Notes under the pieces: generated by a model
Database searches by the model: none
What the model was told of the DNA's origin: nothing
The model's input: the letters and a program-made list of their open reading frames with translations, nothing else
Program-made: the position numbers and the translations under genes
Shown: one piece after another, positions 15,731-48,584 of the stretch
Numbering within the stretch: the first letter of the stretch is position 1
Layout of the letters: each line of letters starts with the position of its first letter
Assembly: GCA_016788665.1 (NCBI GenBank)
Contig: JAEUSF010000003.1
Span: 35,021-99,020, forward strand
Direction of reading: 5' to 3'
From: Candidatus Doudnabacteria bacterium
Lineage (GTDB): Bacteria; Patescibacteriota; Doudnabacteria; UBA920
DNA: 64,000 nucleotides

Positions 15731-15751
15731 TTTATAAATAAAAAAATATAA

Positions 15752-17647
15752 ATGGATAATCAACCCAAAATTACCACATTTGCGAAAACAAACTTCCGGG
15801 GCAAGGAAGTGGCTTTTGGTATTAAGACCGACGACCGTAGACGGCATATGTACCTAATAGGTAAGACAGGTATGGGCAAAACCAGTTTAATGGAAAATAT
15901 GGTTATTCAGGATATTAGAAATGGCCACGGTGTTGCGTTTTTAGACCCACACGGCGACTCCGTTCAGCGCATACTAAACTGTATACCGCCCCACAGGGTT
16001 AACGATGTCGTGTATTTTAACCCAGCAGATTTGGAATTTCCTGTCGCATTCAATATTTTAGAAGCAGTAGATGCTAAGTATAAGCACTTGGTAGCCTCCG
16101 GACTTATGGGCGTGTTTACCAAAATTTGGGCAAATCTTTGGTCCGCCAGAATGGAATACATTTTAAACAACACCGTTTTAGCGTTGCTCGATAGCCCAGG
16201 TAATACATTGCTTGGTATAACCCGCATGTATGTAGACAAAAAATATCGAAAGAAAATAGTAGATAATATAAAAGACCCTGTTGTAAAAAGTTTTTGGGTC
16301 GATGAGTTTGCTAACTATAACGAAAAGTATAGAACCGAAGCCATTGCTCCTATTCAAAATAAGGTAGGGCAGTTTTTGTCGTCTGGGATTATACGCAACA
16401 TAGTTGGTCAGCCCAAAAGTACCATAGATTTGCGCGAGGTTATGGACAACCGGAAAATTTTAATTATGGACTTGTCTAAAGGCAAGGTGGGTGAGGATAA
16501 CTCGGCTTTGCTGGGGGCTATGATTGTTACCAAACTTCAGCTTGCTGCTATGTCCAGAACAGACATACCCGAGTCGGAACGTAAAGATTTTTATTTATAT
16601 GTAGACGAATTTCAAAATTTTGCAACAGACAGTTTTGCGACTATTCTTTCGGAAGCAAGAAAATATCGTTTAAACCTTATAGTCGGACACCAATATATTG
16701 CTCAATTGGAAAATGACAAAAATACTAAAGTTCGTGACGCAATATTTGGTAACGTGGGAACAATTGCAGTATTTAGAATTGGCGCAGCAGACGCCGAGTT
16801 TTTGGAAACTGAATTTGAGCCGATTTTTACACCAAACGATTTGGTGAATTTGCCAAAATACAATATTGTTTTAAAACTCATGATAAATGGCGTGGCCAGT
16901 GAGCCCTTCTCTGCAGTGACCCTTGCTCCCAACGACGCTTACCTAACCAATAATTCTGAGAAAGTTATACGAGTTTCCAGAGAAAGATATGCAAATCCGG
17001 TAGATGCGGTCGAGGAAAAAATAAGCCGCTGGATGGGAGCGGAATTTCATCAGGAATCTGCTGAAATGGTGGAGAGCGAGGAACAAGAAATAAAAGTTCC
17101 TACTCCTCAGGAAGAAATTGCTCCTTTGAATAATTCCGTTGTGCAAGTGACGCCTTTAACTATGTCTATGCCGGTAGAAGAGGAGCCGGCGCCTGCTGTG
17201 GTAGAAGAAAAGCAGGTTCTAAAGTTTGCCGAGCCGCCTCGAGAAGAACAAAGTTCAAAGTTTGTTAACTTTGAAGAACGAAAACCCAAAGAAGACAGAC
17301 CAAAGGGGTATAAACCTTCTTTAACTTTTAGACAGGATCCAGAATTTAAGCCTAAGCCTCAAAAATTTAACAGAGAAAAGATTTTTAAACATAGGGTAAA
17401 AGAGAAACCACAGAAAAAAGAAAATCCTATTTGGGATGCAGTTATTAAGGAGCAAAATCAAAAAAACCAAAATGCGCATAAGCGCTTGGAACAAAGTGTG
17501 AAAAGTTTGTTATCAGACGAAAAAGAGTTAGGACAACAATCTTCGCCTTCTTCCACGTCAACTCCTTCTGGTTTAGATGGTTCTGAAAAAAAACCTGACA
17601 CCTCGGTAAGGACCATTTTAAAGCCCAACAAGCCTGTTAGTTTTTAG
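15752..17647 (+). CDS. Type IV secretion coupling-protein-like ATPase (VirD4/TraD/TrwB family) with a roughly 200-aa disordered Glu/Lys/Pro-rich C-terminal tail
   Basis: Walker A IGKTGMGKTS and hydrophobic-D ILIMDLSKG. YLYVDEFQNF...ARKYRLNLIVGHQYIAQL resembles the TraD/TraG C-terminal (TraM-recognition) domain. Confidence 0.6.
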   Translation: MDNQPKITTFAKTNFRGKEVAFGIKTDDRRRHMYLIGKTGMGKTSLMENMVIQDIRNGHGVAFLDPHGDSVQRILNCIPPHRVNDVVYFNPADLEFPVAFNILEAVDAKYKHLVASGLMGVFTKIWANLWSARMEYILNNTVLALLDSPGNTLLGITRMYVDKKYRKKIVDNIKDPVVKSFWVDEFANYNEKYRTEAIAPIQNKVGQFLSSGIIRNIVGQPKSTIDLREVMDNRKILIMDLSKGKVGEDNSALLGAMIVTKLQLAAMSRTDIPESERKDFYLYVDEFQNFATDSFATILSEARKYRLNLIVGHQYIAQLENDKNTKVRDAIFGNVGTIAVFRIGAADAEFLETEFEPIFTPNDLVNLPKYNIVLKLMINGVASEPFSAVTLAPNDAYLTNNSEKVIRVSRERYANPVDAVEEKISRWMGAEFHQESAEMVESEEQEIKVPTPQEEIAPLNNSVVQVTPLTMSMPVEEEPAPAVVEEKQVLKFAEPPREEQSSKFVNFEERKPKEDRPKGYKPSLTFRQDPEFKPKPQKFNREKIFKHRVKEKPQKKENPIWDAVIKEQNQKNQNAHKRLEQSVKSLLSDEKELGQQSSPSSTSTPSGLDGSEKKPDTSVRTILKPNKPVSF

Positions 17648-21819: not shown

Positions 21820-21920
21820 AAAAAAAGTTATGTTAGTAAAAATGGATAAAAATGGGGACATGACCCATTAATTTAGATTCAATATTTTTTGGTTATGGCT
21901 ACGTATTGTACCTTTTTTGC

Positions 21921-21954
21921 ATTTACTCCAATACTAGATAGTATTGGAGTAAAT
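21921..21954. repeat. Perfect 15-bp inverted repeat with 4-bp spacer (ATTTACTCCAATACT agat AGTATTGGAGTAAAT), just upstream of the GC-rich island A promoter
   Basis: The arms are exact reverse complements. Sits in the 260-bp AT-rich spacer at the island boundary. Confidence 0.75.
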
Positions 21955-21988
21955 GTTAAGAATCGGTTTTATTTATTTTAAGTTGCCC

Positions 21989-22018
21989 TTGTAAAAAGTT
22001 AGCAAATGTTGTATAATG
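21989..22018 (+). promoter_or_regulatory. Candidate promoter (TTGTAA-18-TATAAT) for the PEP-CTERM gene, followed by a 9-bp-stem 5' UTR hairpin (22027-22062) and GGAGGG RBS
   Basis: Hexamers and the AAATCCTTC/GAAGGATTT inverted repeat read directly. RBS at 22068-22073, ATG at 22077. Confidence 0.35.
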
Positions 22019-22076
22019 CCCTAAACAAATCCTTCAAACCTCGCTAGGTTAAGAAGGATTTTATGTTGGAGGGAAA

Positions 22077-22583
22077 ATGATTCTGTTTGTCATGCTCTTG
22101 GCAGGTAGTATGCTAGGGGCCACTCTCTCGCTCGGTACGGGGCCGACCATAGAGGTTTCGAACTTCTCGGCCGGGACGTCCGAGTTTAGTGTCCAGGTTT
22201 CGCAGCCTGGGTACAACTTTGCTGGAGTAAAAATCCAGCCGCTTGCACCGGGTCTTGACCTGGTACTGAACTCGGCTACAGTGAACGGCAATGTCGCCAC
22301 CGGCTTTTCGGTGGGTTCTTTGGACGGGGCGAAGTACATAGCCCCGGACTCGGCAACGCTGCTGTTGCCCAACTTCGCTGTTGGGACGGTGGTGTTTAAC
22401 CTCACCGCTACAGGTGCGGTCGAGGGACAGAGCCCAAGCCAGCTCTTTATGGTTTTCTTGCAAAACCAGAACAGCTACGGCTTTACGGCGTATAACACCG
22501 CCGATTCTCCGGAGCCTGCAACCTGGGCGCTCGCAGGAGCTGTGCTCCTGGTGCTTGTGGCACTGGGCAAAAAACCTAGTTAG
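22077..22583 (+). CDS. Secreted protein with signal peptide and C-terminal PEP-CTERM-type sorting signal (SPEPATWALAGAVLLVLVALGKKPS*); GC-rich gene, probably foreign
   Basis: N-terminal hydrophobic signal peptide. C-terminus is PEP + hydrophobic helix + KK, as in exosortase substrates. Gene GC is about 57% against about 39% in the flanks. Confidence 0.55.
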   Translation: MILFVMLLAGSMLGATLSLGTGPTIEVSNFSAGTSEFSVQVSQPGYNFAGVKIQPLAPGLDLVLNSATVNGNVATGFSVGSLDGAKYIAPDSATLLLPNFAVGTVVFNLTATGAVEGQSPSQLFMVFLQNQNSYGFTAYNTADSPEPATWALAGAVLLVLVALGKKPS

Positions 22584-22614
22584 CCTTCCAACTTTTGTTC
22601 GGAGGCTTTTTTAT
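22583..22614 (+). terminator. Rho-independent terminator for the PEP-CTERM gene (GCCTTCC...GGAGGC then TTTTTT)
   Basis: Hairpin followed by a T-run immediately after the stop codon. Confidence 0.5.
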
Positions 22615-22652
22615 TTGCAAAAAAATACGCTGGCAACGGTTGTCGCCAGCGT
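22615..22652 (-). terminator. Rho-independent terminator for the minus-strand gene 22680..23177 (ACGCTGGC / GCCAGCGT 8-bp stem, T-run on the minus strand)
   Basis: Perfect 8-bp stem. The A-run on the plus strand is a T-run on the minus strand. Confidence 0.5.
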
Positions 22653-22679
22653 ACAGAAGTTTCGCGAAGAGGGTCGGTA

Positions 22680-23177
22680 CTACTCTTTGAAGATCGTGGG
22701 ATAGGCCTTTTTGGCCTTTTCCCAAGCGTCGACCAGAACCTTGGGCTCCGGCGACTTGAGAGTGAGATCGGTTTCCCGAATTACGCTCTTGAACCGCTCG
22801 CAGTCTTCGGTCTCGAACGGGAAGGCAGCTCCTTCCTTGCATCCCGACGTGACTTCAATTTGGAGGCTCGTCCGGCTGTCTTCCAGCATCCTTCTTACGA
22901 CTTGGATCACGGTTCTTTGCGAACCGATCATACGGTTGATGCTCTGCAGAACTTCATGGTCTCCGAAGACAAGTCCTTTTTCCAGATCCTGGCCGCTGAC
23001 TTTTAGCTTACTCTGGAAGGTTTGGAGCTTTCCGCTCCATTCTTTGATAACCCGGACTTCGTTCCGGGCCGTCTCCAGCCTCATCTTGCCCATTTGGGCA
23101 AGAGGGTCTTCCTGCCCAAAGGCCGCGGAGGCGGCCAATACCAACACCAACCACAACACGATCATAACGCGTTTCAT
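22680..23177 (-). CDS. GC-rich secreted hypothetical protein (signal peptide MKRVMIVLWLVLVLAASAAFGQ, two Cys)
   Basis: Convergent with the PEP-CTERM gene and of similar elevated GC. Its upstream region carries CTCTTCG..CGAAGAG / TTCGCGAA palindromes. Confidence 0.5.
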   Translation of the reverse strand: MKRVMIVLWLVLVLAASAAFGQEDPLAQMGKMRLETARNEVRVIKEWSGKLQTFQSKLKVSGQDLEKGLVFGDHEVLQSINRMIGSQRTVIQVVRRMLEDSRTSLQIEVTSGCKEGAAFPFETEDCERFKSVIRETDLTLKSPEPKVLVDAWEKAKKAYPTIFKE

Positions 23178-23429
23178 TTGCTCTCTCTTCTGGTAGTAGT
23201 GTCTCTTCGTATTCGCGAAGAGCAGGCTGTGGGCCTTCTAAAAGACCCTAAAACTGCTCTTCGCGAAAAATATAGGCCTCCTTATACTTGAGTGTAATTA
23301 TAGCATATTTAGAATAAAAAGTCAATGTGCTCGTACGTACAAAAAAAACTTATAAACATTGGTGTATATGAACCAGCTTAATATTTTAGATTTGGCTAAA
23401 AATATGGTAAAATTAATAATATTTTTGGC

Positions 23430-24806
23430 ATGGAAATTAAAGATTTAAAAGACAAATTGGTCGCTGTTTTAGGCTTTGGCCTAGAAGGTCAGGCGACGAC
23501 AAAGTATTTGCTCAAGCACGGTGTAAAACCCGTGCTGTTTGACGAAAGGCCTTTGGAAAGTTTTGAAGCAGGTGAGCAGGATTTTATAAAGGCAGAAAAT
23601 TTGAATTTTATTTTTGGTCCGCAGGCTTTTTTGGAACTAAAAGGTTTTGACGTAGTTTTTAGGAGTCCCGGCATTAAGCTGTCTGAAATACAAGACAAGG
23701 TTTCGACTAAAACTGTAATTACTTCCCAAACAAAATATTTTTTTGAACATTGTCCTGCAAAAATAATTGGCGTAACCGGAACAAAAGGCAAAGGTACTAC
23801 AGCTTCTTTAATTTTCGAAATTCTACAAGCTACCAGCTACAAGCTACCACCTAGTGTTTATTTAACTGGCAATATTGGCAATGTTCAGCCTTTAGAAATA
23901 CTAGATGAACTTAAAAAGGAAGATGTGGTTGTGTATGAACTTTCGAGTTTTCAGTTGCAAGACTTAACTCAGAGCCCGCATATTGGAGTTTGTTTAATGG
24001 TTACCAGTGAGCATTTGGACTATCATAAAAGCGTGGAGGAGTATTGGCAAGCAAAGTCTGCTATAACACGATTTCAGACAAAAAATAACTTTACTGTTGT
24101 AAACGTGGATTACGAGGGGTCAAAATATATTGGTAGTTTAGGCGAAGGGATAAAAATATTCGTGAGTACAAAGCAAGTCTTACAAGAAGGTGTTTGTTTG
24201 GACGGCGAAAAAATTAAAGCAGTTTTTGGTTCGTTGAACTTAAGTATTCCGTTGCCAGTTGTAAGGTTAAGGGGTAGGCATAACTTAGAAAACATTCTAG
24301 CGAGCATTGCGGCCTGTTTGGCTTTGGGTTATGAAGTGCAGAGTATTTTAGAAACTGTAAAAAATTTTAATGGGTTGGAACACAGGCTTGAATTTGTTGG
24401 AGAAAAAAACGGAGTTAAGTACTATAACGACTCTTTTTCCACAACGCCTGACACTGCTATTGCAGCTTTGGAGAGTTTTTCTGAAAAAATTGTGGTCATA
24501 TTGGGCGGTTCTAGCAAAAAAAGTAACTTTGCCGTATTGGGAGAGAAGTTAAATACCGCTAATAATATAAGAGGTGTTGTACTGGTTGGCGACGAGGGTT
24601 CTAACATAAAAGCCCAGATAAAAAATTCAGCAATACAAATTTTAGAAGGGGCAAAGAATATGGCCGAAATTGTTAAGCAGGCAAATAGTTTGGCGGAGTC
24701 CGGTGACGTGGTTTTATTGTCCCCGGCTTGTGTGTCGTTTGGAATGTTTAAAAACTATAAGGACAGGGGAGAGCAGTTTAAATATCAAATATCAAATAAC
24801 AAGTGA
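23430..24806 (+). CDS. murD: UDP-N-acetylmuramoylalanine--D-glutamate ligase (MurD)
   Basis: Mur ligase P-loop IIGVTGTKGKGTT. The dcw-cluster context (mraY upstream, ftsW downstream) points to MurD. Confidence 0.85.
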   Translation: MEIKDLKDKLVAVLGFGLEGQATTKYLLKHGVKPVLFDERPLESFEAGEQDFIKAENLNFIFGPQAFLELKGFDVVFRSPGIKLSEIQDKVSTKTVITSQTKYFFEHCPAKIIGVTGTKGKGTTASLIFEILQATSYKLPPSVYLTGNIGNVQPLEILDELKKEDVVVYELSSFQLQDLTQSPHIGVCLMVTSEHLDYHKSVEEYWQAKSAITRFQTKNNFTVVNVDYEGSKYIGSLGEGIKIFVSTKQVLQEGVCLDGEKIKAVFGSLNLSIPLPVVRLRGRHNLENILASIAACLALGYEVQSILETVKNFNGLEHRLEFVGEKNGVKYYNDSFSTTPDTAIAALESFSEKIVVILGGSSKKSNFAVLGEKLNTANNIRGVVLVGDEGSNIKAQIKNSAIQILEGAKNMAEIVKQANSLAESGDVVLLSPACVSFGMFKNYKDRGEQFKYQISNNK

Positions 24807-24922
24807 TGGGTGATGGGATGAATCGCGAATAACAAATTTTAAATTATAAACGGAAAGTTTGGAGGATTATACTACTTCTTACTAATATCCTTTATGCTTA
24901 CTGCATCAGACAGAAAAAACAA

Positions 24923-26038
24923 ATGAAAAAGGAGATTTTAAAAACAAAGCGGTCCAAGTTAGACATTGAGCTGTTGCTTATTGCCGGTTTTTTAATATCT
25001 TTCGGGCTCATTGCTTTATATTCAGCTTCTACAGTCGTTTCTTATAAAAAATTTGGCGTGACAACTAAAAATATTGCCCACCAAATAACTAACGGCGGGT
25101 TAATTGGGTTATTGGCTTTAATTTTTTTGTATAAGATTGATTATCATATTTACAAAAAGTTTCTCCCGTATTTGCTGGGCGCTTCGGTTGTTCTTTTGCT
25201 TATGGTAAAGTTTAGTTCATTTGGTTATAGTGCCGGGGGTGCTAGCAGATGGCTTGATTTTGGCTTTATAACTTTTCAACCTTCCGAGCTTATAAAAATT
25301 ACCACAGTGGTGTATATGGCTGCTTGGCTGGAAAGAAAAAAACATTTATTAAATGACTTTTGGCAAGGTTTGTTGCCAAACTTAATAGTGGTGGGTTTAA
25401 TAGCTGGTCTAATATTGGCTCAGCCAGATTTTGGCACCATGCTTGTTGTTATTGCGATTGCTGCAGCCATGCTGTTTGCGGGAGGTTTAAGCTGGCGGTA
25501 CGTTCTGGCAGGTTTTTTTAGCTTAATCTTGGTTTTATACTTATTTATACATTTTGAACCGTATAGGGCAGAGCGCATGATGACTTTTTTAAACCCTGAA
25601 ATAGACCCACGCGGCATAAGTTATCAGGTTAACCAGTCTATTCTTGCCATAGGGGCGGGAGGGCAGTGGGGTTATGGTTATGGTTTGTCCAGGCAGAAGC
25701 ATAATTATTTACCGGCTACTTACACTGATTCAATTTTTGCTGTAACATCGGAGGAATTGGGGTTTTGGCGTGCAAGTTTAATTGTTTTGGGTTTTTTGGC
25801 ACTCGCCATTAAGGGTTTAAAAATTGCAAAAAGCGCACCCGACGTTTTTGGAAGCATGCTAGCGGTTGGAATAACCACCTGGCTTACCGTGCAGGCTATA
25901 GTTAACATTGGCGCTTTGTCTGGCCTTTTGCCTTTGACTGGTATTCCTTTGCCATTTTTTTCGTATGGAAGCACAGCTCTTATAGTTAATATGGCCGCGC
26001 TTGGCATATTACTTAATGTTTCAAAGTATTCTAAATGA
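24923..26038 (+). CDS. ftsW: SEDS family peptidoglycan glycosyltransferase FtsW/RodA
   Basis: 10-TM SEDS protein in dcw context. Confidence 0.85.
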   Translation: MKKEILKTKRSKLDIELLLIAGFLISFGLIALYSASTVVSYKKFGVTTKNIAHQITNGGLIGLLALIFLYKIDYHIYKKFLPYLLGASVVLLLMVKFSSFGYSAGGASRWLDFGFITFQPSELIKITTVVYMAAWLERKKHLLNDFWQGLLPNLIVVGLIAGLILAQPDFGTMLVVIAIAAAMLFAGGLSWRYVLAGFFSLILVLYLFIHFEPYRAERMMTFLNPEIDPRGISYQVNQSILAIGAGGQWGYGYGLSRQKHNYLPATYTDSIFAVTSEELGFWRASLIVLGFLALAIKGLKIAKSAPDVFGSMLAVGITTWLTVQAIVNIGALSGLLPLTGIPLPFFSYGSTALIVNMAALGILLNVSKYSK

Positions 26039-28206
26039 GAAAAGAACAGTTTAAAATTTATTTTCACCAGCATTATTTTCATAAGCTGATAGCTCCGAAA
26101 AGGCAACGTGGATTGTTTAAAACAATTTTTTCCGCTTTGTTTTATGCTGTGCGGTTTTTGTTTTTAGGGTTGTATGGACTTTGTTATTTGGTTGGGGAAG
26201 GCGTGCTGCTTTTTTTGCAAAAAGCCGTCACAGTTTTTATTCGCGATGTTATTAAGACCAAAGAAGTTTTATTACTTAGGGCAAAGCGGGCAAATTCGCG
26301 AGACTTTTTGGCGAACCATGTCTCACTAACCATGGCTGTTATTTGCATAGGTATTTTGTTTAGCGGTTTTGGGCTCTTTGCCCAAGGCCTTGAGCTAAAA
26401 GAAAATGTTTTAAATATATTTGGCCAGGGCAAGACCGACCTCGAAACCGCTCAGGCTCTTTTAAAAGAGCAAAAAACTGAAGCGGCCAGGCAAAGCTTGT
26501 ATGGCGCCATGAAAAATTTTCAGGCGGCTCAAAATCATATAAAGCAAACAAATACTGAATTAAAATTAATTCTCTCTTTTTTACCTCAAGGGGCAGATGC
26601 GAAAAAAATATTGGAGGCTTCTGAAAAGGTTTCTGAAGGCGGCCAAAGCCTTTTAGTCTTTTACGAAAATTTTAAATTGTTAAAATTCACGCCCGAGGGT
26701 ATTTCTTCTGCCGAAGAAAACCAAAAAGTTTTACAAAGTTCTGAGCAAGAAGTCAAAAAAGCAACCGCGAGTTTAAGAAAGGCCAGTGAGCTGCTTTCTT
26801 CAATAAACATAAAAAGTGTTCCGGAAAATTATAGAGCGGAATTTTTACAAGCAAAGAAACTAGCGGAAAATGTTTCTGGCATAAGTCAGACATTTGAGGA
26901 AATTTTTAGCTTGTTTAATTCGGTTTTGTCGCATTCGTCCAATATTTTGTTAGTGTTGCAAAACAACAACGAGCTTAGGCCAAGCGGCGGGTTTATTGGA
27001 AGTTTTGCTGCTATTAAACAAAGTTATGGCAAAATGTCCAGTATAAAACTCGGGAGTATATATGACCTTGACGGGCAATTAAAAGATAAAATTTTGCCCC
27101 CCATGCCAATGTTTGCCGTAAATGACAGATGGTATTTAAGAGACAGTAACTGGTTTTTAGACTTTAAAAAGTCTGCTAAGAAAATTACAGAATTTTATGA
27201 GAAAGAGGGCGGGGAAACCCCTGATTTGGTAGTTGCTCTAACGCCGAATTTAATAATTGACCTTTTAAAAATTACAGGTCCTGTAGAATTACCAAAATAT
27301 AAAATTTTACTTGACTCTGAAAATTTTGTGGAACGAACTCAGGTGCTCACAGAAATGGATATGACAACTCCAGAAAACACTCCTAAGCAGTTTTTGGCTG
27401 ACTTAATGCCGGTGCTTTTAGAAAGGCTTGGGCGTGTAAAATTTGAACAGTTCGACCAGCTAACGGAGAGCTTGTTTAAGAATTTATCCGAAAAGCATTT
27501 GCAAATTTACTCCCGCTATGAAAATATTCAAGAACGTCTAGAAGCATTTAACTGGGCTGGTAGAGTATACGAATCTGATTCTGACTATTTGGCCGTGGTT
27601 TCTAGTAATTTGGGCGGAACTAAGACGGACTTGTATGTAGAGCAGTCTATAAAGCTAGATGTAAGGCTCGAGGAAGACAAAGCAGTTAAAGAACTTACTT
27701 TAACTTTTAAAAACACATTGCCGGAACTCGAAAATACTTTTAACAAACGCTTTATAAGAATAATGGTTCCAAAAAATTCTAAACTCAAAAGTGTGAGGGG
27801 GTTTGATTATGTAAATTTGGAAAGGCCCGATGCGAAAGATTATAAAATTGACCCTGATGCTAAGGAGTGGGATGAAAATACTTCACGCAATATAGTAACG
27901 GGTACTTTAGTTGGTGAAGAGTCGGGCAAAACATTTTTTGGTAACTGGTTAACTCTGAAAGGCGGACAGGAAAGGGTGGTAAAAATTGTTTACGAAACTC
28001 CTTTGAGGTATGAAAAGTTTTTTAATTATAGTCTGCTTTTGCAAAAGCAACCTGGCGCAGAAGCTTCGGATTTCGAGTTAAATATTTTTCTGGGAGGCAA
28101 AAAGTTAATTTGGAGCAGTGATGGTATGGTGGTAGATGGTTTGTTTAAATTAAAATTTATATTAAATCAGGACCGCTTGCTCGGCTTGGTTTTGCAGCAG
28201 CCTTGA
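26035..28206 (+). CDS. Large membrane-anchored hypothetical protein (723 aa), possibly DUF4012-like (NNELRPSGGFIGSFAAIK)
   Basis: N-terminal TM segments and a long extracytoplasmic coiled/helical region. Sits between ftsW and murJ, overlapping the ftsW stop. Confidence 0.5.
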   Translation: MRKEQFKIYFHQHYFHKLIAPKRQRGLFKTIFSALFYAVRFLFLGLYGLCYLVGEGVLLFLQKAVTVFIRDVIKTKEVLLLRAKRANSRDFLANHVSLTMAVICIGILFSGFGLFAQGLELKENVLNIFGQGKTDLETAQALLKEQKTEAARQSLYGAMKNFQAAQNHIKQTNTELKLILSFLPQGADAKKILEASEKVSEGGQSLLVFYENFKLLKFTPEGISSAEENQKVLQSSEQEVKKATASLRKASELLSSINIKSVPENYRAEFLQAKKLAENVSGISQTFEEIFSLFNSVLSHSSNILLVLQNNNELRPSGGFIGSFAAIKQSYGKMSSIKLGSIYDLDGQLKDKILPPMPMFAVNDRWYLRDSNWFLDFKKSAKKITEFYEKEGGETPDLVVALTPNLIIDLLKITGPVELPKYKILLDSENFVERTQVLTEMDMTTPENTPKQFLADLMPVLLERLGRVKFEQFDQLTESLFKNLSEKHLQIYSRYENIQERLEAFNWAGRVYESDSDYLAVVSSNLGGTKTDLYVEQSIKLDVRLEEDKAVKELTLTFKNTLPELENTFNKRFIRIMVPKNSKLKSVRGFDYVNLERPDAKDYKIDPDAKEWDENTSRNIVTGTLVGEESGKTFFGNWLTLKGGQERVVKIVYETPLRYEKFFNYSLLLQKQPGAEASDFELNIFLGGKKLIWSSDGMVVDGLFKLKFILNQDRLLGLVLQQP

Positions 28207-28221
28207 TTCAGAATTGCATAA

Positions 28222-29835
28222 ATGATAAAGTATATAAAAATTTTGGAGTCAGATTTTACAGTTGGCAAAGCAGCTATTATTATTGGGTTTTTTAGTTTTG
28301 CGACAAAACTAGCAGCACTTTTTAGAGAAAGACTGTTTGCTTCTTATTTTGGCCAGGGCCCACTGCTCGATAGTTATTTTTCGGCTTTTCGTATACCGGA
28401 TTTTGTAACAAATTTGTTTGTTTTAAGTACTCTCTCGGTAGCTTTTTTGCCAGTATTTGCTAGGGAAAAAAAAGCCAGCAGGGAAGAAGCGGAAAAGTTT
28501 GCTAACACTTGTTTAGATTTTGGGCTTTTGTTTGTGGGGGCAGTGTGTCTGATTTTATTTGTTTTTTCTAAACCTATGACCCAATATTTGGTTCCGGGTT
28601 TCTCTGGCCAACAGCTACAAGATACGCTAAAGTTAACCCGTTTATTTTTGCTAACTCCAATTATTTTTACAGCTTCAACTATTTTTGGCGGAGTTTTAAA
28701 CGCGAAAAAAAAGTTTATAATAACCAGCTTGGCGCCACTGCTTTATAATTTGGGTATAATTTTCGGGATTGTTTTCTTATTTGGACGTTTTGGCATTTTG
28801 GGGCTAGGATATGGAGTTATTTTAGGGGCCTTGGCCCAGTTATTTGTTCAGGTTTACACGGTATGGTCGGGTGGCTTTTCTTTAAAATGGAGTTTTAATT
28901 CTAAGTTGCCGGCATTCCGCGAAATGTTGCAAATGTATTTGCCAAGAATTTTTACTTTTGACTTGGCAAATGTGACTTTGCTTCTAACCACAATTTTTGC
29001 GTCTTTGGTAGTGCCTGGATCTATAACCGCGGTGAATCAGTCTTTTAACTTACAGTCTGTTCCGATTGGAATATTTGCGTTTGCTTTGTCGTCGGCGGTG
29101 TTTCCGGTTTTTAGCGAACATTTTGCAAATAAAAACGAAATTGGGTATGCCAATAGTTTAAAAAAATCTGTACGTCAAATTTTGTTTCTAATGGTTCCCG
29201 CTACTGTTTTTCTGGTAATTTTTAGAGCTTACGTTGTTAGGCTTGTTTTAGGGGCGGGGAATTTTAGCTGGGAAGACACTGTCACAACTTTTACCTTTTT
29301 AGGTATTTTTGCTTTCTCGCTTGTAAGCCAGAGCCTTACCACTTTGCTTTCCAGGGCTTTTTTTGCAAGACATAATACCAAAACCCCTGTGAAGGCAAAC
29401 TTGGTGTCTGTGGCAATAAACATTGTTTTGTCTTATGTATTGTTTCAGAGGTTGGGTACGGAAGGTTTGGTTTTAGGATTTGTATTTTCTAGCATTTTTA
29501 ATGCATCGTACCTGGCTCTTTCCTTAAGGGATATACTGCGAAAACAGGCAGGTGTTCAGGTGGTTTATGAGTTAGAAAAATTTGTGCTTGTGGGTTTAAA
29601 TAAAATAATTATGTCTTCGGTCATAGGGGGCGCGGTTAGCTACGGCTTAATTTATGCTCTGGAGCCTTTTGTTTACACTAATACTTTTTTTGGTATATTG
29701 GTTCAGGCTGCATTAGCTGGAGCTGGTGGAGTTGCGGTATATTTGTTTGCCTCGTTTAAGTTAGGTTTAGTGGAGGCTCAGGCGGTATATATTGCAGTAA
29801 GTAAACTGCTGCCAAATAAAAAACCCTCTTTTTAA
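28222..29835 (+). CDS. murJ: Lipid II flippase MurJ (MviN)
   Basis: 14-TM MOP-superfamily protein with a MurJ-like N-terminus (FRERLFASYFGQGPLLDSYFSAFRIPDF). Confidence 0.9.
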   Translation: MIKYIKILESDFTVGKAAIIIGFFSFATKLAALFRERLFASYFGQGPLLDSYFSAFRIPDFVTNLFVLSTLSVAFLPVFAREKKASREEAEKFANTCLDFGLLFVGAVCLILFVFSKPMTQYLVPGFSGQQLQDTLKLTRLFLLTPIIFTASTIFGGVLNAKKKFIITSLAPLLYNLGIIFGIVFLFGRFGILGLGYGVILGALAQLFVQVYTVWSGGFSLKWSFNSKLPAFREMLQMYLPRIFTFDLANVTLLLTTIFASLVVPGSITAVNQSFNLQSVPIGIFAFALSSAVFPVFSEHFANKNEIGYANSLKKSVRQILFLMVPATVFLVIFRAYVVRLVLGAGNFSWEDTVTTFTFLGIFAFSLVSQSLTTLLSRAFFARHNTKTPVKANLVSVAINIVLSYVLFQRLGTEGLVLGFVFSSIFNASYLALSLRDILRKQAGVQVVYELEKFVLVGLNKIIMSSVIGGAVSYGLIYALEPFVYTNTFFGILVQAALAGAGGVAVYLFASFKLGLVEAQAVYIAVSKLLPNKKPSF

Positions 29836-30353
29836 ATGGGGTGGGGCAATTGGCCGCTGGGGTTTGCCGGCAGTGCAATGGGCAGGCCCATGTCCTTGCC
29901 CAGCTTGTCGGTAAGAGCTCGCGTCTCGGGGTACTGCTCGCCCTGCCTAAACAGGGCTTCTTGGTAGTTTCCAACAGCGCTGAGCAGGAAACTGAAAATG
30001 TTGGGTGAGAACCGGCCGCTTCTGCTTAGGCTGGTTTTGATGCTCCCTGCGTAGAACACAATGTTCTCGTACGACCTCTTTTCAACCCCCTGGTAAAACT
30101 TGTCACGAAGAGCTTGTAACTCTTCTTCGCTCGTTCCAAGCTTTGCGAGGTCACGAACGCCGGCTTTCGCCATTGTCCGCCAAATTTCGCCAATGGCGAG
30201 AACGGGGTCAGTGACGAGGCCGTCACGAAGTCCGCGCACGAGCTCGCAGGCCTGTGCGAGTTTGGTCTCTCTTTTTTCGCATTTGCTTGCGTACGCCTTT
30301 TGGGGCGCCCGCTAAAATTAGCGCGGTCAGCATGAGCGCTTTTACGAAATTCA
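29832..30353 (-). pseudogene. GC-rich secreted protein gene interrupted by a frameshift at an A6 homopolymer; restored product is about 173 aa with signal peptide MNFVKALMLTALILAGAP
   Basis: The signal-peptide frame (ATG at 30353, RBS AAGGAGGG 6 nt upstream) stops after 48 codons. Deleting one A in AAAAAAG joins it in frame to the 135-aa ORF 29832..30239. Its stop overlaps the murJ stop. Confidence 0.45.
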
Positions 30354-30460
30354 TTTTCTGATCCCTCCTTTTTGGGACTTTGGCTAGTTATCAGGAATTA
30401 TTGTTTAAGTCTAGAGCTTTAAGGCTTTATTCTTTTTGCTTTATTTGGTAAAATTGCCTT

Positions 30461-32299
30461 ATGTCACAACAAGAAAACATAAGAAATTTTTGCATAATAG
30501 CTCATATAGACCACGGGAAGAGTACGCTTGCCGACAGGCTTTTGGAAATTACGAATACTGTTTTGAAAAGGGACATGAAGAGCCAATTACTTGACCAAAT
30601 GGACTTGGAACGGGAGAGGGGCATAACGATTAAACTACAACCGGTACGCATGACTTACACAATGAAGAATGAAGAAGTTAGAACGCAGAATGGAAAAGAC
30701 ATTTCTGATTCTGAATTCTACATTCTTAATTTAATCGACACTCCTGGGCACGTGGACTTTTCTTACGAAGTGTCCAGGTCTTTGGCATGCTGCGAAGGTG
30801 CAATTTTGGTTGTCGACTCCACTCAAGGCATAGAAGCCCAAACCTTGGCCAATGTTTACTTAGCTTTAGAGCATGACTTGGCAATTATCCCGGTTATAAA
30901 TAAGATTGACCTGCCGAATTCAGACAGGCAAAAAACTGCCGAAGAGCTAAAGAGTGCTTTCGGCTTTACTGACGAAGAAATTTTGTATGCTTCGGGCAAA
31001 ACCGGCGAGGGCGTGGAAGATATAATTCATGCCGTAATTAAGCGCGTACCCGCTCCCAAAGGTGACAGTAAAAAACCTGTTAGGGCGCTAATATTTGACT
31101 CTATATATGACATACATAGAGGAGTGGTTGCTTACGTTAGGGTGTTTGACGGACAGATATTTCCGAGAGAAAAAATTTATACGTTGGAAAGTAAGACCGA
31201 GGCCGAAAGTTTAGAGGTTGGCTATTTTAAACCCAAAATGGAAAAGTCCGCTGAGATAAAAACCGGTGAAGTAGGTTATATTGTCACCGGACTTAGAGAC
31301 GTTTCCAAGGCCCGGGTGGGTGATACTATAACTCTGTTTGAGGGCCGCCAGACCGCCGAGCCTCTTCCAGGTTATAAACATGTGACTCCGATGGTTTATG
31401 CTACAATTTTTCCGGTTTCGGGCGATGATTATCCGTCTCTGCGTGATGCTATGGAAAAATTAAGGCTTTCCGACGCATCTCTTTCTTTTGAGCCTATAAA
31501 TATCCCTTCTATAGGATTTGGTTTTAGAACAGGGTTTTTAGGCCTTTTGCATATGGATATTGTGCAAGAAAGGTTGTCTCGCGAGTATAACTTAGATTTG
31601 GTTTTAACTGCTCCAAGCGTTGCGTACAGAATAGTGAAATCAGATGGTTCTGAAATTACTATCCATAATCCGGCTGAAATGCCCGACCCGAGTATAATAA
31701 AAGAAATGTACGAACCGTGGATGCTGGTTAATATTTTAACCCCGACGGATCATATTGGGCCCATTATGGAAATTGCTACTCAAAGAAGGGCTGTGAGTAA
31801 AGATATAAAATATATTTCAAAAGACAGGGTAGATATGTCTTTTGAAATGCCTCTTGCAAATATTATTTTGGACTTTTATGACAAACTTAAGTCCGTGTCT
31901 TCTGGTTACGCTTCTCTGAATTATGATTTTGTGGAAGAGCGGGTAGGAGATTTGGCTAAAGTTGATATTTTAGTGGCGGGGGAAAAGGTAGACGCTCTTT
32001 CGGTAATTATGCATCGTTCATTTGCGGCTCAGGAAGGCAAGGAATTGGTTGCGAAGCTAAAAGAGCTTATTCCGAGACATCAATTTGAAATAGCTCTTCA
32101 GGCCGCAATCGGAGGGAAAGTAGTCGCTCGGGAAACAATATCGGCGCTTAGAAAAGATGTGACAGGATATTTATATGGGGGCGATGTTACCCGAAAAATG
32201 AAGCTTTTAAACAAGCAAAAAAAAGGTAAGAAACGAATGAAAAAAATTGGCAAGGTTGACATACCGCAGGAAGCATTTTTAGCAGTACTTAAAAAATAG
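30461..32299 (+). CDS. lepA: Elongation factor 4 (LepA)
   Basis: AHIDHGKST G1 motif, 612 aa, LepA-specific C-terminal domain. Confidence 0.95.
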   Translation: MSQQENIRNFCIIAHIDHGKSTLADRLLEITNTVLKRDMKSQLLDQMDLERERGITIKLQPVRMTYTMKNEEVRTQNGKDISDSEFYILNLIDTPGHVDFSYEVSRSLACCEGAILVVDSTQGIEAQTLANVYLALEHDLAIIPVINKIDLPNSDRQKTAEELKSAFGFTDEEILYASGKTGEGVEDIIHAVIKRVPAPKGDSKKPVRALIFDSIYDIHRGVVAYVRVFDGQIFPREKIYTLESKTEAESLEVGYFKPKMEKSAEIKTGEVGYIVTGLRDVSKARVGDTITLFEGRQTAEPLPGYKHVTPMVYATIFPVSGDDYPSLRDAMEKLRLSDASLSFEPINIPSIGFGFRTGFLGLLHMDIVQERLSREYNLDLVLTAPSVAYRIVKSDGSEITIHNPAEMPDPSIIKEMYEPWMLVNILTPTDHIGPIMEIATQRRAVSKDIKYISKDRVDMSFEMPLANIILDFYDKLKSVSSGYASLNYDFVEERVGDLAKVDILVAGEKVDALSVIMHRSFAAQEGKELVAKLKELIPRHQFEIALQAAIGGKVVARETISALRKDVTGYLYGGDVTRKMKLLNKQKKGKKRMKKIGKVDIPQEAFLAVLKK

Positions 32300-32391
32300 A
32301 AAGGCGGTGCTTATCCACCAAAGGGAGGGTTGGATTTAAGAATAAAAAAAACCATACTTGATTTGGTTCATAAACCATCTTGTACGGTTTG

Positions 32392-32589
32392 CTACCAGAT
32401 TCGCGGTAAAGCCGGTAAGGTTCCGGTCTTGAACGCAAAACTAAACAGCAAGAATGCTAAGACGAATATTACAACCCGTAATCTTTCGCTTAAGCGTATT
32501 TGGCACTCGCTCAGAATCCAGCCTAGCAGGAATGTTACAACTCCTGACAAAATTGTCAGGTCGAATACCGTGCTAAAAATCTTCTCCAT
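32392..32589 (-). CDS. Small two-TM membrane protein (65 aa), hypothetical
   Basis: Hydrophobic ORF with GAGGAG Shine-Dalgarno about 9 nt upstream of the ATG. The overlapping plus-strand ORF looks spurious. Confidence 0.35.
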   Translation of the reverse strand: MEKIFSTVFDLTILSGVVTFLLGWILSECQIRLSERLRVVIFVLAFLLFSFAFKTGTLPALPRIW

Positions 32590-32663
32590 CTATCTATGAC
32601 TCCTCGTTTGATTTTTAGACTATCATTTTCTAAAACAATTTACAAATTTAATGTAAGAGCAAT

Positions 32664-33305
32664 ATGAACAAAAAAATTGGAATAGGTCTTGCTGTGATAG
32701 TAATAACTATCGCAGCTTATATGGTTTTTAATGTGAAAGACAAGGCGAGCGAATCTTCGGTTAAAAGCCAGGACCAGACTCAGATACAGTCTGAAATAAA
32801 GACAGAGTCGGAAAAAAAGTCGCTTAAAAGTTTGGCAATGGCTGGAAAGCCTCAAAAATGCACTTTTACCCAGCAAGTCGAAAATTCTGAAAGTTCGGGC
32901 ACTTATTTCATTTCTACTGGTAAAGTCCGAGGCGATTACAACGTAAAGACTCAAGGGCAAAATATTTCTGGGCATATGATTTTAGACGGGAGTATTATTT
33001 ATACTTGGTCAGATGCACAGACACAGGGTTTTAAGATGGAGGTTTTAGAAGAAAACAATTCCACTTCCCAAACTAACCAAAACATAAATGTGGCCCAGCA
33101 GCTTGCTTATAAGTGCGAAGATTGGAAATTAGACGAAGCAGTATTTTCTTTGCCTAAAGATGTAACTTTTAAAACAATGGCAGAAGCATCTGGTGGGGCC
33201 AATACTATGTCGCAAGACGATATAAAAGCTATGCAGTGTAAGGCATGTGACAATGTGCCTGCTGAAAGCGGGATGCAGTGCAAGCAGGCTTTAAATTGCA
33301 AATAA
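32664..33305 (+). CDS. Secreted/anchored Cys-containing hypothetical protein (213 aa)
   Basis: N-terminal signal anchor. Ser/Gln/Thr-rich linker. Six Cys in the C-terminal part. Confidence 0.5.
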   Translation: MNKKIGIGLAVIVITIAAYMVFNVKDKASESSVKSQDQTQIQSEIKTESEKKSLKSLAMAGKPQKCTFTQQVENSESSGTYFISTGKVRGDYNVKTQGQNISGHMILDGSIIYTWSDAQTQGFKMEVLEENNSTSQTNQNINVAQQLAYKCEDWKLDEAVFSLPKDVTFKTMAEASGGANTMSQDDIKAMQCKACDNVPAESGMQCKQALNCK

Positions 33306-33331
33306 AAAACACCTTTTAAAAAGATGTTTGA

Positions 33332-33481
33332 CTAGAGTTTGCCGATGATTAATTTGGCTGAAATGGCAATCGCTAAAGCTGTTGCAGCTGCGCCAAGCGC
33401 TACTTGGGCTGGAATGTTTAGGAGGAGCAAACTGCCAAGAGCCCCGGCTATGCCGACGCTAATACTAATGCATTTTCGCAT
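33332..33481 (-). CDS. 49-aa hydrophobic peptide (MRKCISISVGIAGALGSLLLLNIPAQVALGAAATALAIAISAKLIIGKL) with a perfect Shine-Dalgarno; not in the ORF track
   Basis: AGGAGG then 6 nt then ATG. Starts 10 nt after the stop of the 103-aa ORF 33492..33803 on the same strand. One to two predicted TM helices rich in small residues. Confidence 0.45.
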   Translation of the reverse strand: MRKCISISVGIAGALGSLLLLNIPAQVALGAAATALAIAISAKLIIGKL

Positions 33482-33491
33482 TCGATTCCTC

Positions 33492-33803
33492 CTAACTACT
33501 CATGCACAGTGGTGGCAGGTCATCCAGTGGCGATTCGCGGAACTTGGTTGGTATGCAACCGTGAGTCAGGATCGCGAGAACATACCAGCAGAATGTAGCA
33601 AACCTAACTGTCCTCCTCTGTCCTGCAATGGATAGCTCCCACGACAGCTCTGCTTCCATTGTGTGGTTTTCCCACTCGAAGACCAAGGCTGTTCTGTTGG
33701 CGAGAAGCGCCAGGTCATGATCGGTTTGTTGTGACATCGGCAAGCTTTCAAACGCTTGCCAACATTTTACAAGGTTGCTATAGCTAAGCCGAAAACTGAA
33801 CAT
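33492..33803 (-). CDS. Hypothetical protein (103 aa, possibly 81 aa from the internal Met MSQQTDHD...), first gene of a two-gene minus-strand unit in a GC-elevated patch
   Basis: ORF in a roughly 50% GC segment. TATAAT lies 8 nt upstream of its ATG on the minus strand. No recognisable domain. Confidence 0.4.
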   Translation of the reverse strand: MFSFRLSYSNLVKCWQAFESLPMSQQTDHDLALLANRTALVFEWENHTMEAELSWELSIAGQRRTVRFATFCWYVLAILTHGCIPTKFRESPLDDLPPLCMSS

Positions 33804-33840
33804 AAATTGATTATACTTTAAATTTGGTAATATTTAAAAT

Positions 33841-33957
33841 ATGAATATATTTAAACAAAGAAAGACTTTGCATAAAATAATGTATGCACTGGCAATAGTT
33901 ATGATATTTAGCATGTTGTTTTTAACACTTGGGCCAACTTTTTTTAGTGGGAACTAA
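33841..33957 (+). CDS. 38-aa single-TM peptide (MNIFKQRKTLHKIMYALAIVMIFSMLFLTLGPTFFSGN), translationally coupled (TAATG) to the downstream PH-domain gene
   Basis: Stop TAA overlaps the ATG of 33957..34427. Hydrophobic core. No clear SD. Confidence 0.3.
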   Translation: MNIFKQRKTLHKIMYALAIVMIFSMLFLTLGPTFFSGN

Positions 33958-47539: not shown

Positions 47540-47615
47540 CGCGGGATAGAGCAATTGGCAGCTCGTCAGGCTCATAACCTGAAGGTTCCCGGTTCGAGTC
47601 CGGGTCCCGCAACCA
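47540..47615 (+). tRNA. Initiator tRNA-fMet (anticodon CAT)
   Basis: Starts CGCGGGA and ends TCCCGCAACCA, with the C1:A72 mismatch typical of bacterial initiators. CUCAUAA anticodon loop. Close to the E. coli tRNA-fMet sequence. Confidence 0.8.
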
Positions 47616-47995
47616 TAAACCATTCGCTAACGCTCAGGTATATGGCGCGGTCATAAGTCGCGTTTTGAGTGTTGCGACCATTTGTTTATATTGGCGAATG
47701 GTTTATGACCTTACTCGGCCCCGTTTTGGCGGGAGAGTGTTTAGGGCATGAAGGCGACAAATATAATAGCAAAATCGTGACAGATTTTTCCCGCTGTCCG
47801 CGGGATTTATTTTGTTCGTAATTACGCGTGGCGGTCACGCTTAACGTGACTGTTGCCGCGCTTAGCGCGGCGGAGTAGCTGAAGTGTTACCCGCCCGAAC
47901 GTACCCCGCCAGAATGAAACTTTCGGGCTAGCGTTCGGTACGGGCGAGGAGCGTGGGACTCATAAGTCACCTAAGTGATCCGGGGTTTCTATAAT

Positions 47996-48325: not shown

Positions 48326-48334
48326 AAACACTTT

Positions 48335-48575: not shown

Positions 48576-48584
48576 TTAGAAAAT

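Follow-up and report, generated by a model that had tools for sequence, protein, structure and literature searches.

This locus raises the question of why an AT-rich, ultra-small member of the CPR/Patescibacteria (NCBI label Candidatus Doudnabacteria) should carry short GC-rich stretches among its cell-envelope genes, and where these stretches came from. The window, by which we mean the whole 64-kb stretch of DNA that was analysed, has a GC content of 39.1%. A maximal-scoring-segment scan for GC (threshold 47% GC) placed three islands among its top GC-rich segments, with cores at 22094-23235 (island 1, 54.7% GC, score 88), 29838-30339 (island 2, 57.0% GC, score 50) and 33378-33745 (island 3, the least GC-rich of the three, 53.0% GC, score 22). 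Elsewhere in the window, comparable segments are found only at a tRNA cluster (47.5-48.7 kb) and in a conserved part of gyrB (63.6 kb).

Composition and setting of the islands

The GC profile shows sharp steps at the island borders, and the deviation extends to the genes: GC3 is 0.65-0.68 in P1, P2 and P3 and 0.57 and 0.46 in P4 and P5, compared with 0.25-0.44 (about 0.35) in host genes, and the amino-acid composition of the island ORFs departs from that of the host. A strong SD sequence, defined as a run of at least 5 nt complementary to the anti-SD, precedes three of the five island ORFs versus 3 of 57 host ORFs (Fisher p ~0.005). A preliminary description of this DNA had proposed three high-GC islands with strong SD sequences that are rare elsewhere, and both the GC contrast (53-57% against 39%, with deviating GC3) and the SD bias are confirmed by the GC profile, the codon positions and the ORF counts.

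The genes flanking the islands are mraY, an amidohydrolase gene, murD, ftsW, a DUF4012 gene, murJ and lepA, and the window also encodes SecA, a type IV pilin-like gene and a TraG/TrwB-like gene. The islands had been described as clustering at mraY, murD, ftsW, murJ and lepA; their location in the spacers of this array holds, but the clustering of all three within 12 kb of the 64-kb window reaches, taken alone, only p ~0.09. The further suggestion that all of them encode exported or membrane products applies to four of the five ORFs, which have a putative signal peptide or a hydrophobic product, but not to P4.

For comparison we used the independent MAG L001, L044 (a Logan assembly from another run), L039, L040-43 and L002.

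Genes and signals within the islands

Island 1, taken as the entire inserted interval (21820..23384), lies between the amidohydrolase stop and the murD promoter (AAAATATGGTAAAAT), which is conserved in the window, L001 and L002. A near-consensus sigma-70-type promoter for P1 (TTGTAA-17-TATAAT, 10/12 match) is located at 21989..22017 on the + strand and is followed by a perfect 9-bp hairpin (~22040-22066) and the SD sequence GGAGGG. The best three promoter matches in 12.4 kb are those of P2, P4 and P1. The promoters that drive island genes are AT-rich and of the host type.

P1 (22077..22583, + strand, hypothetical protein MBL8030026.1, 168 aa, GC3 0.66) has a hydrophobic N-terminus without a charged n-region, a predicted beta-sandwich and a C-terminal SPEPAT followed by a TM helix and KK; its AF2 model contains 8 strands and a C-terminal helix (pLDDT 56), and it forms a singleton cluster in the protein collection. 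We suggest that P1 could be a beta-sandwich anchored by its C-terminal transmembrane tail. The tail is 86% identical in L001, and P-E-P, the TM helix and the extreme basic cluster are present both in the window (ending in DSPEPATWALAGAVLLVLVALGKKPS before the stop) and in L001 (ending in DSPEPATWALAASVLLILAALGKKGPAS before the stop). With its hydrophobic N-terminal leader, beta-rich body and conserved tail of P-E-P, TM helix and basic residues, P1 resembles PEP-CTERM proteins (PF07589 / TIGR02595), but differs from them in that the match to the Pfam PEP-CTERM model (E = 0.018, 15.6 bits) is below the cut-off of 20.7, the NCBIfam PEP-CTERM search gave no match at E <= 0.1, and no exosortase (EpsH/Xrt) was seen among the proteins scanned, which are those of the 64-kb window. 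We know of no established case of PEP-CTERM sorting in CPR bacteria. In Zoogloea, PEP-CTERM/exosortase surface proteins (PF07589) are needed for floc formation, as the work is summarized in a later paper (Gao et al., 2018, as cited in PMC11393006).

Convergent to P1 lies P2 (22680..23177, - strand, hypothetical protein MBL8030027.1, 165 aa, GC3 0.68), and the two genes are separated by back-to-back intrinsic terminators with hairpins and T-runs (22582..22654), namely a hairpin with T-run for the + strand (~22582-22616) and a 13-bp stem with T-run for the - strand (22654-22625), a segment that is ~88% identical between the window and L001. Inspection and hydropathy point to a putative Sec signal peptide in P2 (MKRVMIVLWLVLVLAASAAFG, with Q as the first residue after the cleavage site), which is kept in L001, where the orthologue occupies the identical position with 54% amino-acid identity; P2 also has two conserved Cys (SGCKEGAAFPFE..CERF). 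Upstream of the gene (23178..23325, - strand) we find a promoter with an 11/12 match (TTGACT-17-TATAAT, 23297-23325). The 5′ leader, ~115 nt in length, is structured and contains a long hairpin (23212-23267); it folds with -38.4 kcal/mol (z = -3.9) and is ~90% identical to that of L001, including one compensatory and one half-compensatory pair. The motif TTCGCGAAGAG occurs in it at 23212-23222 (+) and 23257-23267 (-), and again 3′ of P2 at 22661-22671 (+), giving exactly three occurrences, where chance would yield 0.5 matches even with one mismatch tolerated.

In AT-rich genomes a GC peak frequently marks an RNA, and the GC-rich stretches could accordingly be structured non-coding RNA genes with incidental ORFs, as the tRNA cluster at the other GC peak and the strongly structured P2 leader might suggest. 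We regard this as very improbable: Rfam 15 matched only four tRNAs in the window at the gathering score, islands 1 and 3 gave nothing credible at E <= 1, and the P2 leader belongs to no Rfam family, while P1-P3 show codon-position GC periodicity of the coding type (GC1 > GC2 < GC3), conserved ORFs, putative signal peptides, Cys pairs and a dN/dS well below 1.

Island 2 (29836..30413) fills the interval from the murJ stop to the promoter region of lepA and holds P3 (29832..30354, - strand, from a three-frame translation), a predicted secreted-protein gene with two conserved Cys. In the window the gene is frameshifted near 30296-30303 (a GCCCCAAAAGG run) and thereby split into a 43-aa ORF for the putative signal peptide and a body of 135 aa; the NCBI annotation is a 113-aa remnant (JNN11_02165). 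Reconstructed across the frameshift, a putative Sec signal peptide (MNFVKALMLTALILAGAPQKAYA, followed by S) is recognized by inspection and hydropathy and kept in L001, where the orthologue is intact (164 aa, 58% identical); that of L044 is partial. For P3, AF2 gave a low-confidence model (pLDDT 50). From the alignment, a putative promoter is placed at 30385..30413 (- strand), reading TAGACT-17-TAACTA in the window and TAGACT-17-TAAAAT in L001. P3 in the window appears to be a recent pseudogene, with which the degenerate -10 box would fit, although the frameshift could alternatively be a sequencing error.

Island 3 (33306..33840) extends from the stop of a 213-aa gene to a conserved 38-aa small ORF upstream of a bPH-domain gene, and NCBI annotates neither of its ORFs. 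P4 (33492..33803, - strand) encodes 103 aa (81 aa if M23 at 33737 is the start), with GC1/2/3 of 0.49/0.44/0.57. Its promoter (TTTAAA-17-TATAAT, 33810-33838, - strand, 10/12 match) ends 6 nt before the ATG. P4 has no export signal, is absent from the protein collection and had no match in the family and viral searches. P5 (33332..33481, - strand, 49 aa) is a predicted hydrophobic small membrane peptide whose SD sequence AGGAGG overlaps the P4 stop; its coding status is weak (GC3 0.46). Both ORFs of this island are weak candidates for genes.

Taken as cassettes, the islands would be small self-contained expression units, each with a near-consensus sigma-70-type promoter, mostly with a structured leader and SD sequence and an ORF whose small product is secreted, anchored at the surface or located in the membrane, to which intrinsic terminators are added in island 1.

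Insertion and inheritance of the islands

A first concern with sharp GC steps in a metagenomic contig, here joined by a frameshift in P3, is that pieces of a co-occurring GC-rich organism have been spliced into the CPR contig, and an assembly or binning artefact had indeed been raised as the alternative in the preliminary description. However, syntenic genes of the same organism lie on both sides of each island, host-type AT-rich promoters stand in front of the island genes, and junctions recur in independent assemblies from other samples: in L001 island 2 is joined to its flanks at both ends as in the window, and so is island 1 at its right end, while L044 has the join between murJ and island 2. 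The window assembly is the only one to show the left end of island 1 and either end of island 3. Because the island sequences are 65% identical between L001 and the window and 93% between L044 and L001, having diverged along with their flanks, they are not a shared contaminant. We therefore consider the artefact largely refuted for islands 1 and 2, and an origin of the islands in misassembly as extremely unlikely.

The three outgroup lineages L039, L040-43 and L002 have tight empty sites. Island 1 is replaced by 2 bp in L040 and 92 bp in L002, and island 2 by 77 bp in L040, ~150 bp in L039 and 138 bp in L002. For island 3, whose filled site is seen in the window alone, the comparative support is the empty site of L040, where the flanking genes are just a few bases apart; L040 thus has empty sites for all three islands. 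In NJ trees of MurJ and of the DUF4012 protein the only island-bearing clade is (window,(L001,L044)), with (L039,L040) and L002 outside, a bracket that is drawn from five relatives and one NJ tree for each of these two genes. The islands are true insertions made on the stem of one small clade and inherited vertically from then on.

We favor, as the probable explanation, that cassettes from one or more GC-richer donors were inserted on this stem, into very short spacers of a conserved co-directional cell-envelope/lepA array, and were then inherited vertically and retained. Alternatively, the cassettes could be ancestral to a wider group and have been cleanly lost elsewhere, with their GC made locally, for example through selection for mRNA structure or through GC-biased gene conversion where surface-protein loci are prone to recombine. 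The absence of donor homologues from very large databases, the strong constraint on the non-coding parts and a GC4 that stays at ~0.7 despite near-saturated synonymous sites, suggesting a local GC-maintaining force, would fit such a history, but it would take at least two independent precise deletions per site, in (L039,L040) and in L002, at three sites, versus one gain each; moreover, SD use and amino-acid composition are unlike those of the host, and no paralogues of the island proteins occur elsewhere in the window. We consider a native origin unlikely.

Judged from the sequence comparison, islands 1 and 2 were in place before the lineages of the window and L001 split, and this split is estimated to be old, with MurJ 69-71% identical between the window and its sister genomes L001/L044 and synonymous sites near saturation. 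The dS between the window and L001 is 2.1 for P3 and 1.6-4.7 for the flanks, and between L001 and L044 it is 0.19 for P3 and 0.27-0.40 for the flanks. Flanking genes have amino-acid identities of 69-91%, above those of P2 and P3. P3 is under purifying selection in the sister lineage (dN/dS 0.19, L001 vs L044), and as P2 and P3 also preserve their ORFs, putative signal peptides and Cys pairs, they would have been retained as working genes, with P3 decaying lately in the window genome through the frameshift and the degenerate -10 box. The piecemeal acquisition that had been suggested earlier thus stands in so far as the islands are genuine insertions of foreign composition with empty sites of 2-150 bp at precisely their positions in relatives, but a recent or ongoing process does not, as islands 1 and 2 predate the old split.

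Origin, GC content and meaning

Exhaustive HMMER searching of 1.84 billion representatives with P2 retrieved only P2 itself, a P3 profile search retrieved only P3 itself and L001, and metagenome, viral and plasmid scans for the island proteins were negative. On these searches every island protein tested would be an orphan with no homologue outside the clade, and the sub-threshold PEP-CTERM-like tail of P1 is the sole hint of a donor; since no donor or outside homologue was found, it is composition and presence/absence only that argue for a foreign origin. The GC-rich partner organism, possibly the host of an episymbiont, that the preliminary description had proposed as donor gains no support from these searches. 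No integrase, transposase or other mobility genes are present in or beside the islands, shared or flanking repeats do not exceed chance, and the nearest tRNA is > 4 kb away. As there is no integrase, tRNA target or flanking repeat, the likeliest route would be illegitimate recombination of taken-up DNA.

Horizontal transfer and genomic islands are documented in Patescibacteria (PMC12455944), and the same paper cites membrane-related LGT in ultrasmall prokaryotes (Jaffe et al., 2016, as cited in PMC12455944). Our islands are similar to such islets in their atypical composition within a streamlined AT-rich genome, their restriction to one lineage and their envelope or surface cargo. They differ in measuring 0.5-1.6 kb with one or two genes, in having no mobility genes, tRNA target or detectable donor, and in being old, shared between species whose synonymous sites are saturated, yet unameliorated.

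The last point deserves attention. In the Lawrence-Ochman model of amelioration, as summarized in a later paper (J Mol Evol, 1997, cited in PMC12455944), foreign GC relaxes to that of the host at about the synonymous rate. Although synonymous sites are near saturation between the window and L001, the GC4 of the islands is still ~0.7; the observed values of 0.69/0.74 lie above the model maximum of ~0.60 (upper CI 0.66), which holds even if the donor had a GC4 of 100% and the insertion coincided with the split. The GC4 needed at the split would be above 1 under host rates and ~0.99 under the slower rate of the islands themselves. This fits poorly with a simple history of acquisition followed by amelioration, and the GC-richness seems to be upheld by something beyond slow decay, for which selection on synonymous sites, selection on RNA structure and GC-biased conversion are candidates. 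It is conceivable, though we would not expect it, that the islands are GC-rich secreted-protein cassettes in compositional disequilibrium, and that an active force preserves their synonymous sites as well as their structured leaders and terminators although the genome around them is AT-rich and SD-poor, be it selection for RNA structure or translation control, GC-biased conversion or repeated re-supply from a GC-rich partner. If so, they would constitute a dedicated, separately regulated set of effectors for interaction with a host or partner, and the conserved P2 leader, considered with its hairpin and the threefold TTCGCGAAGAG, would represent a cis-regulatory RNA or operator of a new kind.

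A related possibility is that the coding parts have been replaced repeatedly by divergent GC-rich alleles from a partner or a population pool, with the conserved non-coding flanks serving as recombination anchors. Between the species, identity in island 1 is ~88-92% for leader, promoter and terminators and 65% for the P2 coding sequence, which such exchange would explain together with the undecayed GC. On the other hand, no source alleles were found in any search, and the divergence of P3 tracks that of its flanks in two or three genomes, as vertical descent predicts, and we think recurrent exchange rather improbable, slightly more so than native origin.

Under the favored reading of acquired and retained cassettes, the island products would probably be exported by Sec (the window encodes SecA) and function on the surface of the cell or beyond it. 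The prevailing view of CPR/Patescibacteria is that they live attached to other cells, and to our knowledge almost nothing is known of the molecules they use at the cell-cell interface. P2 and P3 resemble the "effector-like" orphans of symbionts and pathogens, which are small, secreted and disulfide-bonded, in their ~165 aa, putative Sec signal peptide and two conserved Cys, and in evolving faster than housekeeping genes, under purifying selection, within a single lineage, a likeness that is drawn from the primary sequence (the P3 AF2 model having a pLDDT of 50). A role in interaction with other cells or a host may be envisaged for them.

In conclusion, we view the islands as ancient HGT islets, a real yet fairly ordinary feature. 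If their GC is the slow decay from a very GC-rich donor, they record an ordinary ancient HGT event. If it is actively maintained, dating transfers by their composition would mislead in genomes of this type, and the cassettes would make good candidate symbiosis effectors and a good place to look for a new regulatory RNA. The worry that GC spikes in MAGs are chimeras is settled for islands 1 and 2 at least, and the locus offers a clean, comparatively dated case of a streamlined CPR genome that has gained and kept small orphan proteins, predicted to be secreted or at the surface, inside its cell-envelope array.

Composition and gene content of the islands

We find that three stretches of the window, at 21820-23384, 29836-30413 and 33306-33840 (islands 1, 2 and 3), stand out from a GC content of 39.1% over the 64 kb. 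Their cores at 22094-23235 (54.7%), 29838-30339 (57.0%) and 33378-33745 (53.0%) are among the strongest GC-rich segments in a maximal-segment scan of the whole window, and GC3 of the island genes P1-P3 is 0.65-0.68 against about 0.35 in the genes outside the islands (host genes), with the usual coding periodicity. Both the GC profile and the codon-position check bear out the three high-GC islands of the preliminary description, island 3 being the weakest case. Two other GC peaks were considered as further islands and set aside: the one at 63584-63795 falls within a conserved region of gyrB, and the one at 47.5-48.7 kb coincides with a cluster of tRNAs and repeated tRNA fragments. This cluster (47540-48750; Met, Met, Asp) lies within GC-rich non-coding sequence and contains a duplicated tRNA 5′ start, GGCGGAGTAGC, at 47871 and 48249, a duplicated tRNA fragment, GGGACTCATAAGTCACYTAAGTGATC, at about 47955 and 48334, and repeats of the tRNA-Met 3′ half (about 48334-48390) and the tRNA-Asp 3′ end (about 48663-48682); its part at 47612-47985 had no Rfam match at gathering score.

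Almost all genes of the window lie on the + strand, and GC skew is positive throughout. Island 1 holds P1 (22077-22583, + strand), whose N-terminus is hydrophobic and which ends in a SPEPAT-TM-KK tail, and P2 (22680-23177, − strand), which has a classical signal peptide, as does P3 (29832-30354, − strand) in island 2. Island 3 holds P4 (33492-33803, − strand) and the 49-aa hydrophobic peptide P5 (33332-33481, − strand), in both of which the coding signature (GC3, periodicity) is weaker than in P1-P3. The islands had been described as encoding exported or membrane proteins throughout, which fits P1, P2, P3 and P5 and fails for P4, where there is no export signal. Window MurJ, P1 and P2 are 100% identical to annotated NCBI MAG proteins of Candidatus Doudnabacteria; the NCBI annotation (locus tags JNN11_02135, JNN11_02140 onward) lists P1 and P2 as hypothetical proteins and P3 as a 113-aa remnant, and lacks P4 and P5.

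Strong Shine-Dalgarno (SD) sites, which had been attributed to the islands generally, precede three of the five island ORFs and 3 of 57 host ORFs, so that the claim of their rarity elsewhere stands, although two island ORFs lack such a site. Window-wide, hardly any host gene has an SD, and in several a −10-like box ends about 6 nt before the ATG, as in lepA (30440-30463; TAAAAT-TGCCTT-ATG), a pattern that suggests leaderless or SD-independent initiation as the norm in the source organism. Short hairpins lie directly 5′ of, or overlap, the SDs of P1 (22040-22066, AAATCCTTC...GAAGGATTT) and P3 (30355-30384, AGTCCC...GGGAT in the window and GGGACT in the relative L001); their position suggests translation control by SD sequestration.

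Sister assemblies and empty sites

The preliminary description had offered a binning or assembly artefact as the alternative to acquisition. Two sister genomes bear on this: L001, a MAG of another study found by scanning a genome collection with MurJ, and L044, a Logan assembly from a separate run, found by a MurJ homologue look-up. Window MurJ is 71% identical to that of L001 in tblastn and 69% in the full-length alignment, and L044 and L001 share 93% nucleotide identity. L001 begins inside the P1 tail (28 aa covered, 86% identical to the window) and continues with the terminator region known from the window, an orthologue of P2 (54% amino acid identity), the same leader and promoter, and murD; between its murJ and lepA lies an intact P3 orthologue of 164 aa (58% identical). 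The murJ-P3 junction has the identical arrangement in L044, and the islands are also GC-rich in the relatives carrying them. Because the junctions recur in three assemblies while diverging along with their flanks, a chimera is ruled out, and we reject the artefact explanation for islands 1 and 2; for island 3 such an origin is unlikely.

More distant relatives carry empty sites. In L040-L043 (MurJ 59% identical to the window by tblastn, 57% full-length), the amidohydrolase-murD spacer at the island 1 site is 2 bp, the murJ-lepA spacer at the island 2 site is 77 bp, and at the island 3 site the homologue of the 213-aa gene directly adjoins those of the small ORF and the bPH-domain gene. The murJ-lepA spacer is about 150 bp in L039 (MurJ 63%/62%), and the spacers are 92 and 138 bp in L002 (51%/49%). 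Neighbour-joining trees of MurJ and of the DUF4012 protein both give ((window,(L001,L044)),(L039,L040)) with L002 as outgroup, and the simplest history has each island gained once, on the stem leading to the clade that carries them. The earlier claim of acquired foreign cargo is partly supported, in that these are real, clade-specific insertions of foreign composition with exported products; they are, however, old and vertically inherited, not recent, and the searches reported below turned up no partner or donor. The murD promoter AAAATATGGTAAAAT fixes the right boundary of island 1: it is conserved directly beyond that edge in the window and L001, and also at the empty site of L002. On its right side, the island 3 insertion is delimited by a conserved 38-aa hydrophobic small ORF (33841-33957), also present in L040, which runs into the start of the bPH-domain gene with an ATGA overlap.

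In L002, the variable lepA-bPH interval has a GC-richer (0.53) ORF of its own (15150-15791; 213 aa, several predicted TM segments), for which Pfam gave no match; other lineages may likewise carry GC-rich membrane cargo here. A 17-nt motif, AATGGGGACATGACCCA, consisting of a small hairpin and a T-rich tail, lies directly 3′ of the amidohydrolase stop (21851-21867) and has exact copies in L040 (14040-14056), L041 (12945-12961) and L043 (7634-7650). In a 59%-identity relative the gene preceding it is unrelated, and the motif is probably a terminator-like element conserved in the host. The window copy is thereby upstream of P1, and the 171-aa gene downstream of the motif in L040 was considered as a P1 relative and found not to be homologous.

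Integrase, transposase, tRNA target and boundary repeat were all absent at the islands, the three share no boundary repeats or att-like sites beyond chance, and no island copies beyond chance occur elsewhere in the 64-kb window. The window also encodes a TraG/TrwB-like coupling ATPase (15752-17647), whose synteny is shared by relatives, and at 53239-53736 a type IV pilin-like protein bearing an N-methylation motif; the two could be parts of a DNA-uptake or transfer machinery relevant to the entry of foreign DNA.

Expression signals and the P2 leader

The best three sigma-70-type promoter matches in 12.4 kb lie upstream of P2 (TTGACT-17-TATAAT), P4 and P1, and back-to-back intrinsic terminators separate the convergent P1 and P2. 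Between the window and L001, identity is about 88-92% in the terminator region and in the leader and promoter of P2, as against 65% for the P2 coding sequence. The leader (window 23178-23296, − strand; L001 698-826, − strand), far more conserved than P2 itself, folds as a long hairpin (-38.4 kcal/mol, z = -3.9), in which one change between the two genomes is compensatory and another half-compensatory. Both arms are made by inverted copies of an 11-mer, TTCGCGAAGAG, built around the 8-bp palindrome TTCGCGAA, and a third copy lies immediately 3′ of P2; these three exact copies compare with 0.5 matches expected with one mismatch allowed. The leader matched no Rfam family, and in the whole window (gathering threshold) and in islands 1 and 3 (E <= 1) Rfam returned only tRNAs and spurious miRNA-type hairpin matches. 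We regard the leader as a candidate new cis-regulatory RNA or operator.

Selection, GC retention and possible donors

Between L001 and L044, dN/dS of P3 is 0.19, and therefore P3 is a functional gene under purifying selection; its dS of 0.19 compares with 0.27 for murJ and 0.40 for the DUF4012 gene. The window copy is frameshifted at a C4A4 run, which splits the signal peptide from the body, and its promoter reads TAGACT-17-TAACTA where L001 has TAGACT-17-TAAAAT. The frameshift and the TAACTA −10 box point to a recent pseudogene, or partly to sequencing error.

At four-fold sites of 753 host codons, identity between the window and L001 is 0.376 against a random expectation of 0.281, which is near saturation, with a residual strong/weak (GC versus AT) correlation of 0.094 (95% bootstrap interval 0.02-0.17). 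A two-state relaxation model limits what each lineage retains of the deviation from host GC to the square root of this correlation, about 0.31 (upper bound 0.41); even if the donor had 100% GC4 and the insertion fell exactly at the split, GC4 should now be about 0.60 (upper bound 0.66). At the 74 four-fold sites of the islands, GC4 is 0.69 and 0.74 in this comparison, against 0.40 and 0.44 in host genes, and the islands' own, noisier correlation of 0.27 still demands a GC4 of about 0.99 at the split. Either an extraordinarily GC-rich donor would have to be combined with roughly two-fold slower synonymous evolution in the islands, or GC-richness would be under maintenance; with a sample this small, we take the result as suggestive. 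The window was dropped as an outgroup for polarising L001/L044 substitutions, since a saturated outgroup biases the inferred direction.

Searches of Pfam, NCBIfam, PHROGs, PADLOC and PDB sequences with all island proteins and the L001 orthologues gave nothing significant, the PEP-CTERM tail of P1 scoring below threshold in Pfam (15.6 bits, cut-off 20.7). An exhaustive HMMER search with P2 matched P2 itself alone, a P3 profile search found P3 and its L001 orthologue alone, and relatives were absent from two metagenome scans with the P3 and P2 profiles and from four viral scans and two plasmid searches. A search with concatenated P1 and P2 was empty, yet it also missed both proteins' own entries and is uninformative. 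P2 and P3 were considered as related proteins, and profile comparison shows no relationship. The AF2 model of P1 shows, at low confidence (pLDDT 56), a beta-sandwich and a C-terminal helix, and P3 is predicted at pLDDT 50; the PDB matches returned by Foldseek were generic beta-sandwiches only (E >= 0.01), leaving P1 without a significant structural neighbour. The PEP-CTERM-like tail of P1 points weakly to Gram-negative, exosortase-bearing donors, a lead and not evidence. Wastewater bacteria that form flocs are described as commonly having PEP-CTERM proteins (Gao et al., 2018, as cited in PMC11393006). The relative L039 derives from South African wastewater/river data (PMC11984125), which makes wastewater or freshwater the probable setting of the source community.

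Horizontal gene transfer and islands are already documented in Patescibacteria (PMC12455944). The islands described here are best read as ancient horizontally acquired islets with orphan secreted proteins, a fresh instance of this known type of feature, and the points that merit following are the GC content of the islands, which appears not to decay, and the ultra-conserved P2 leader.
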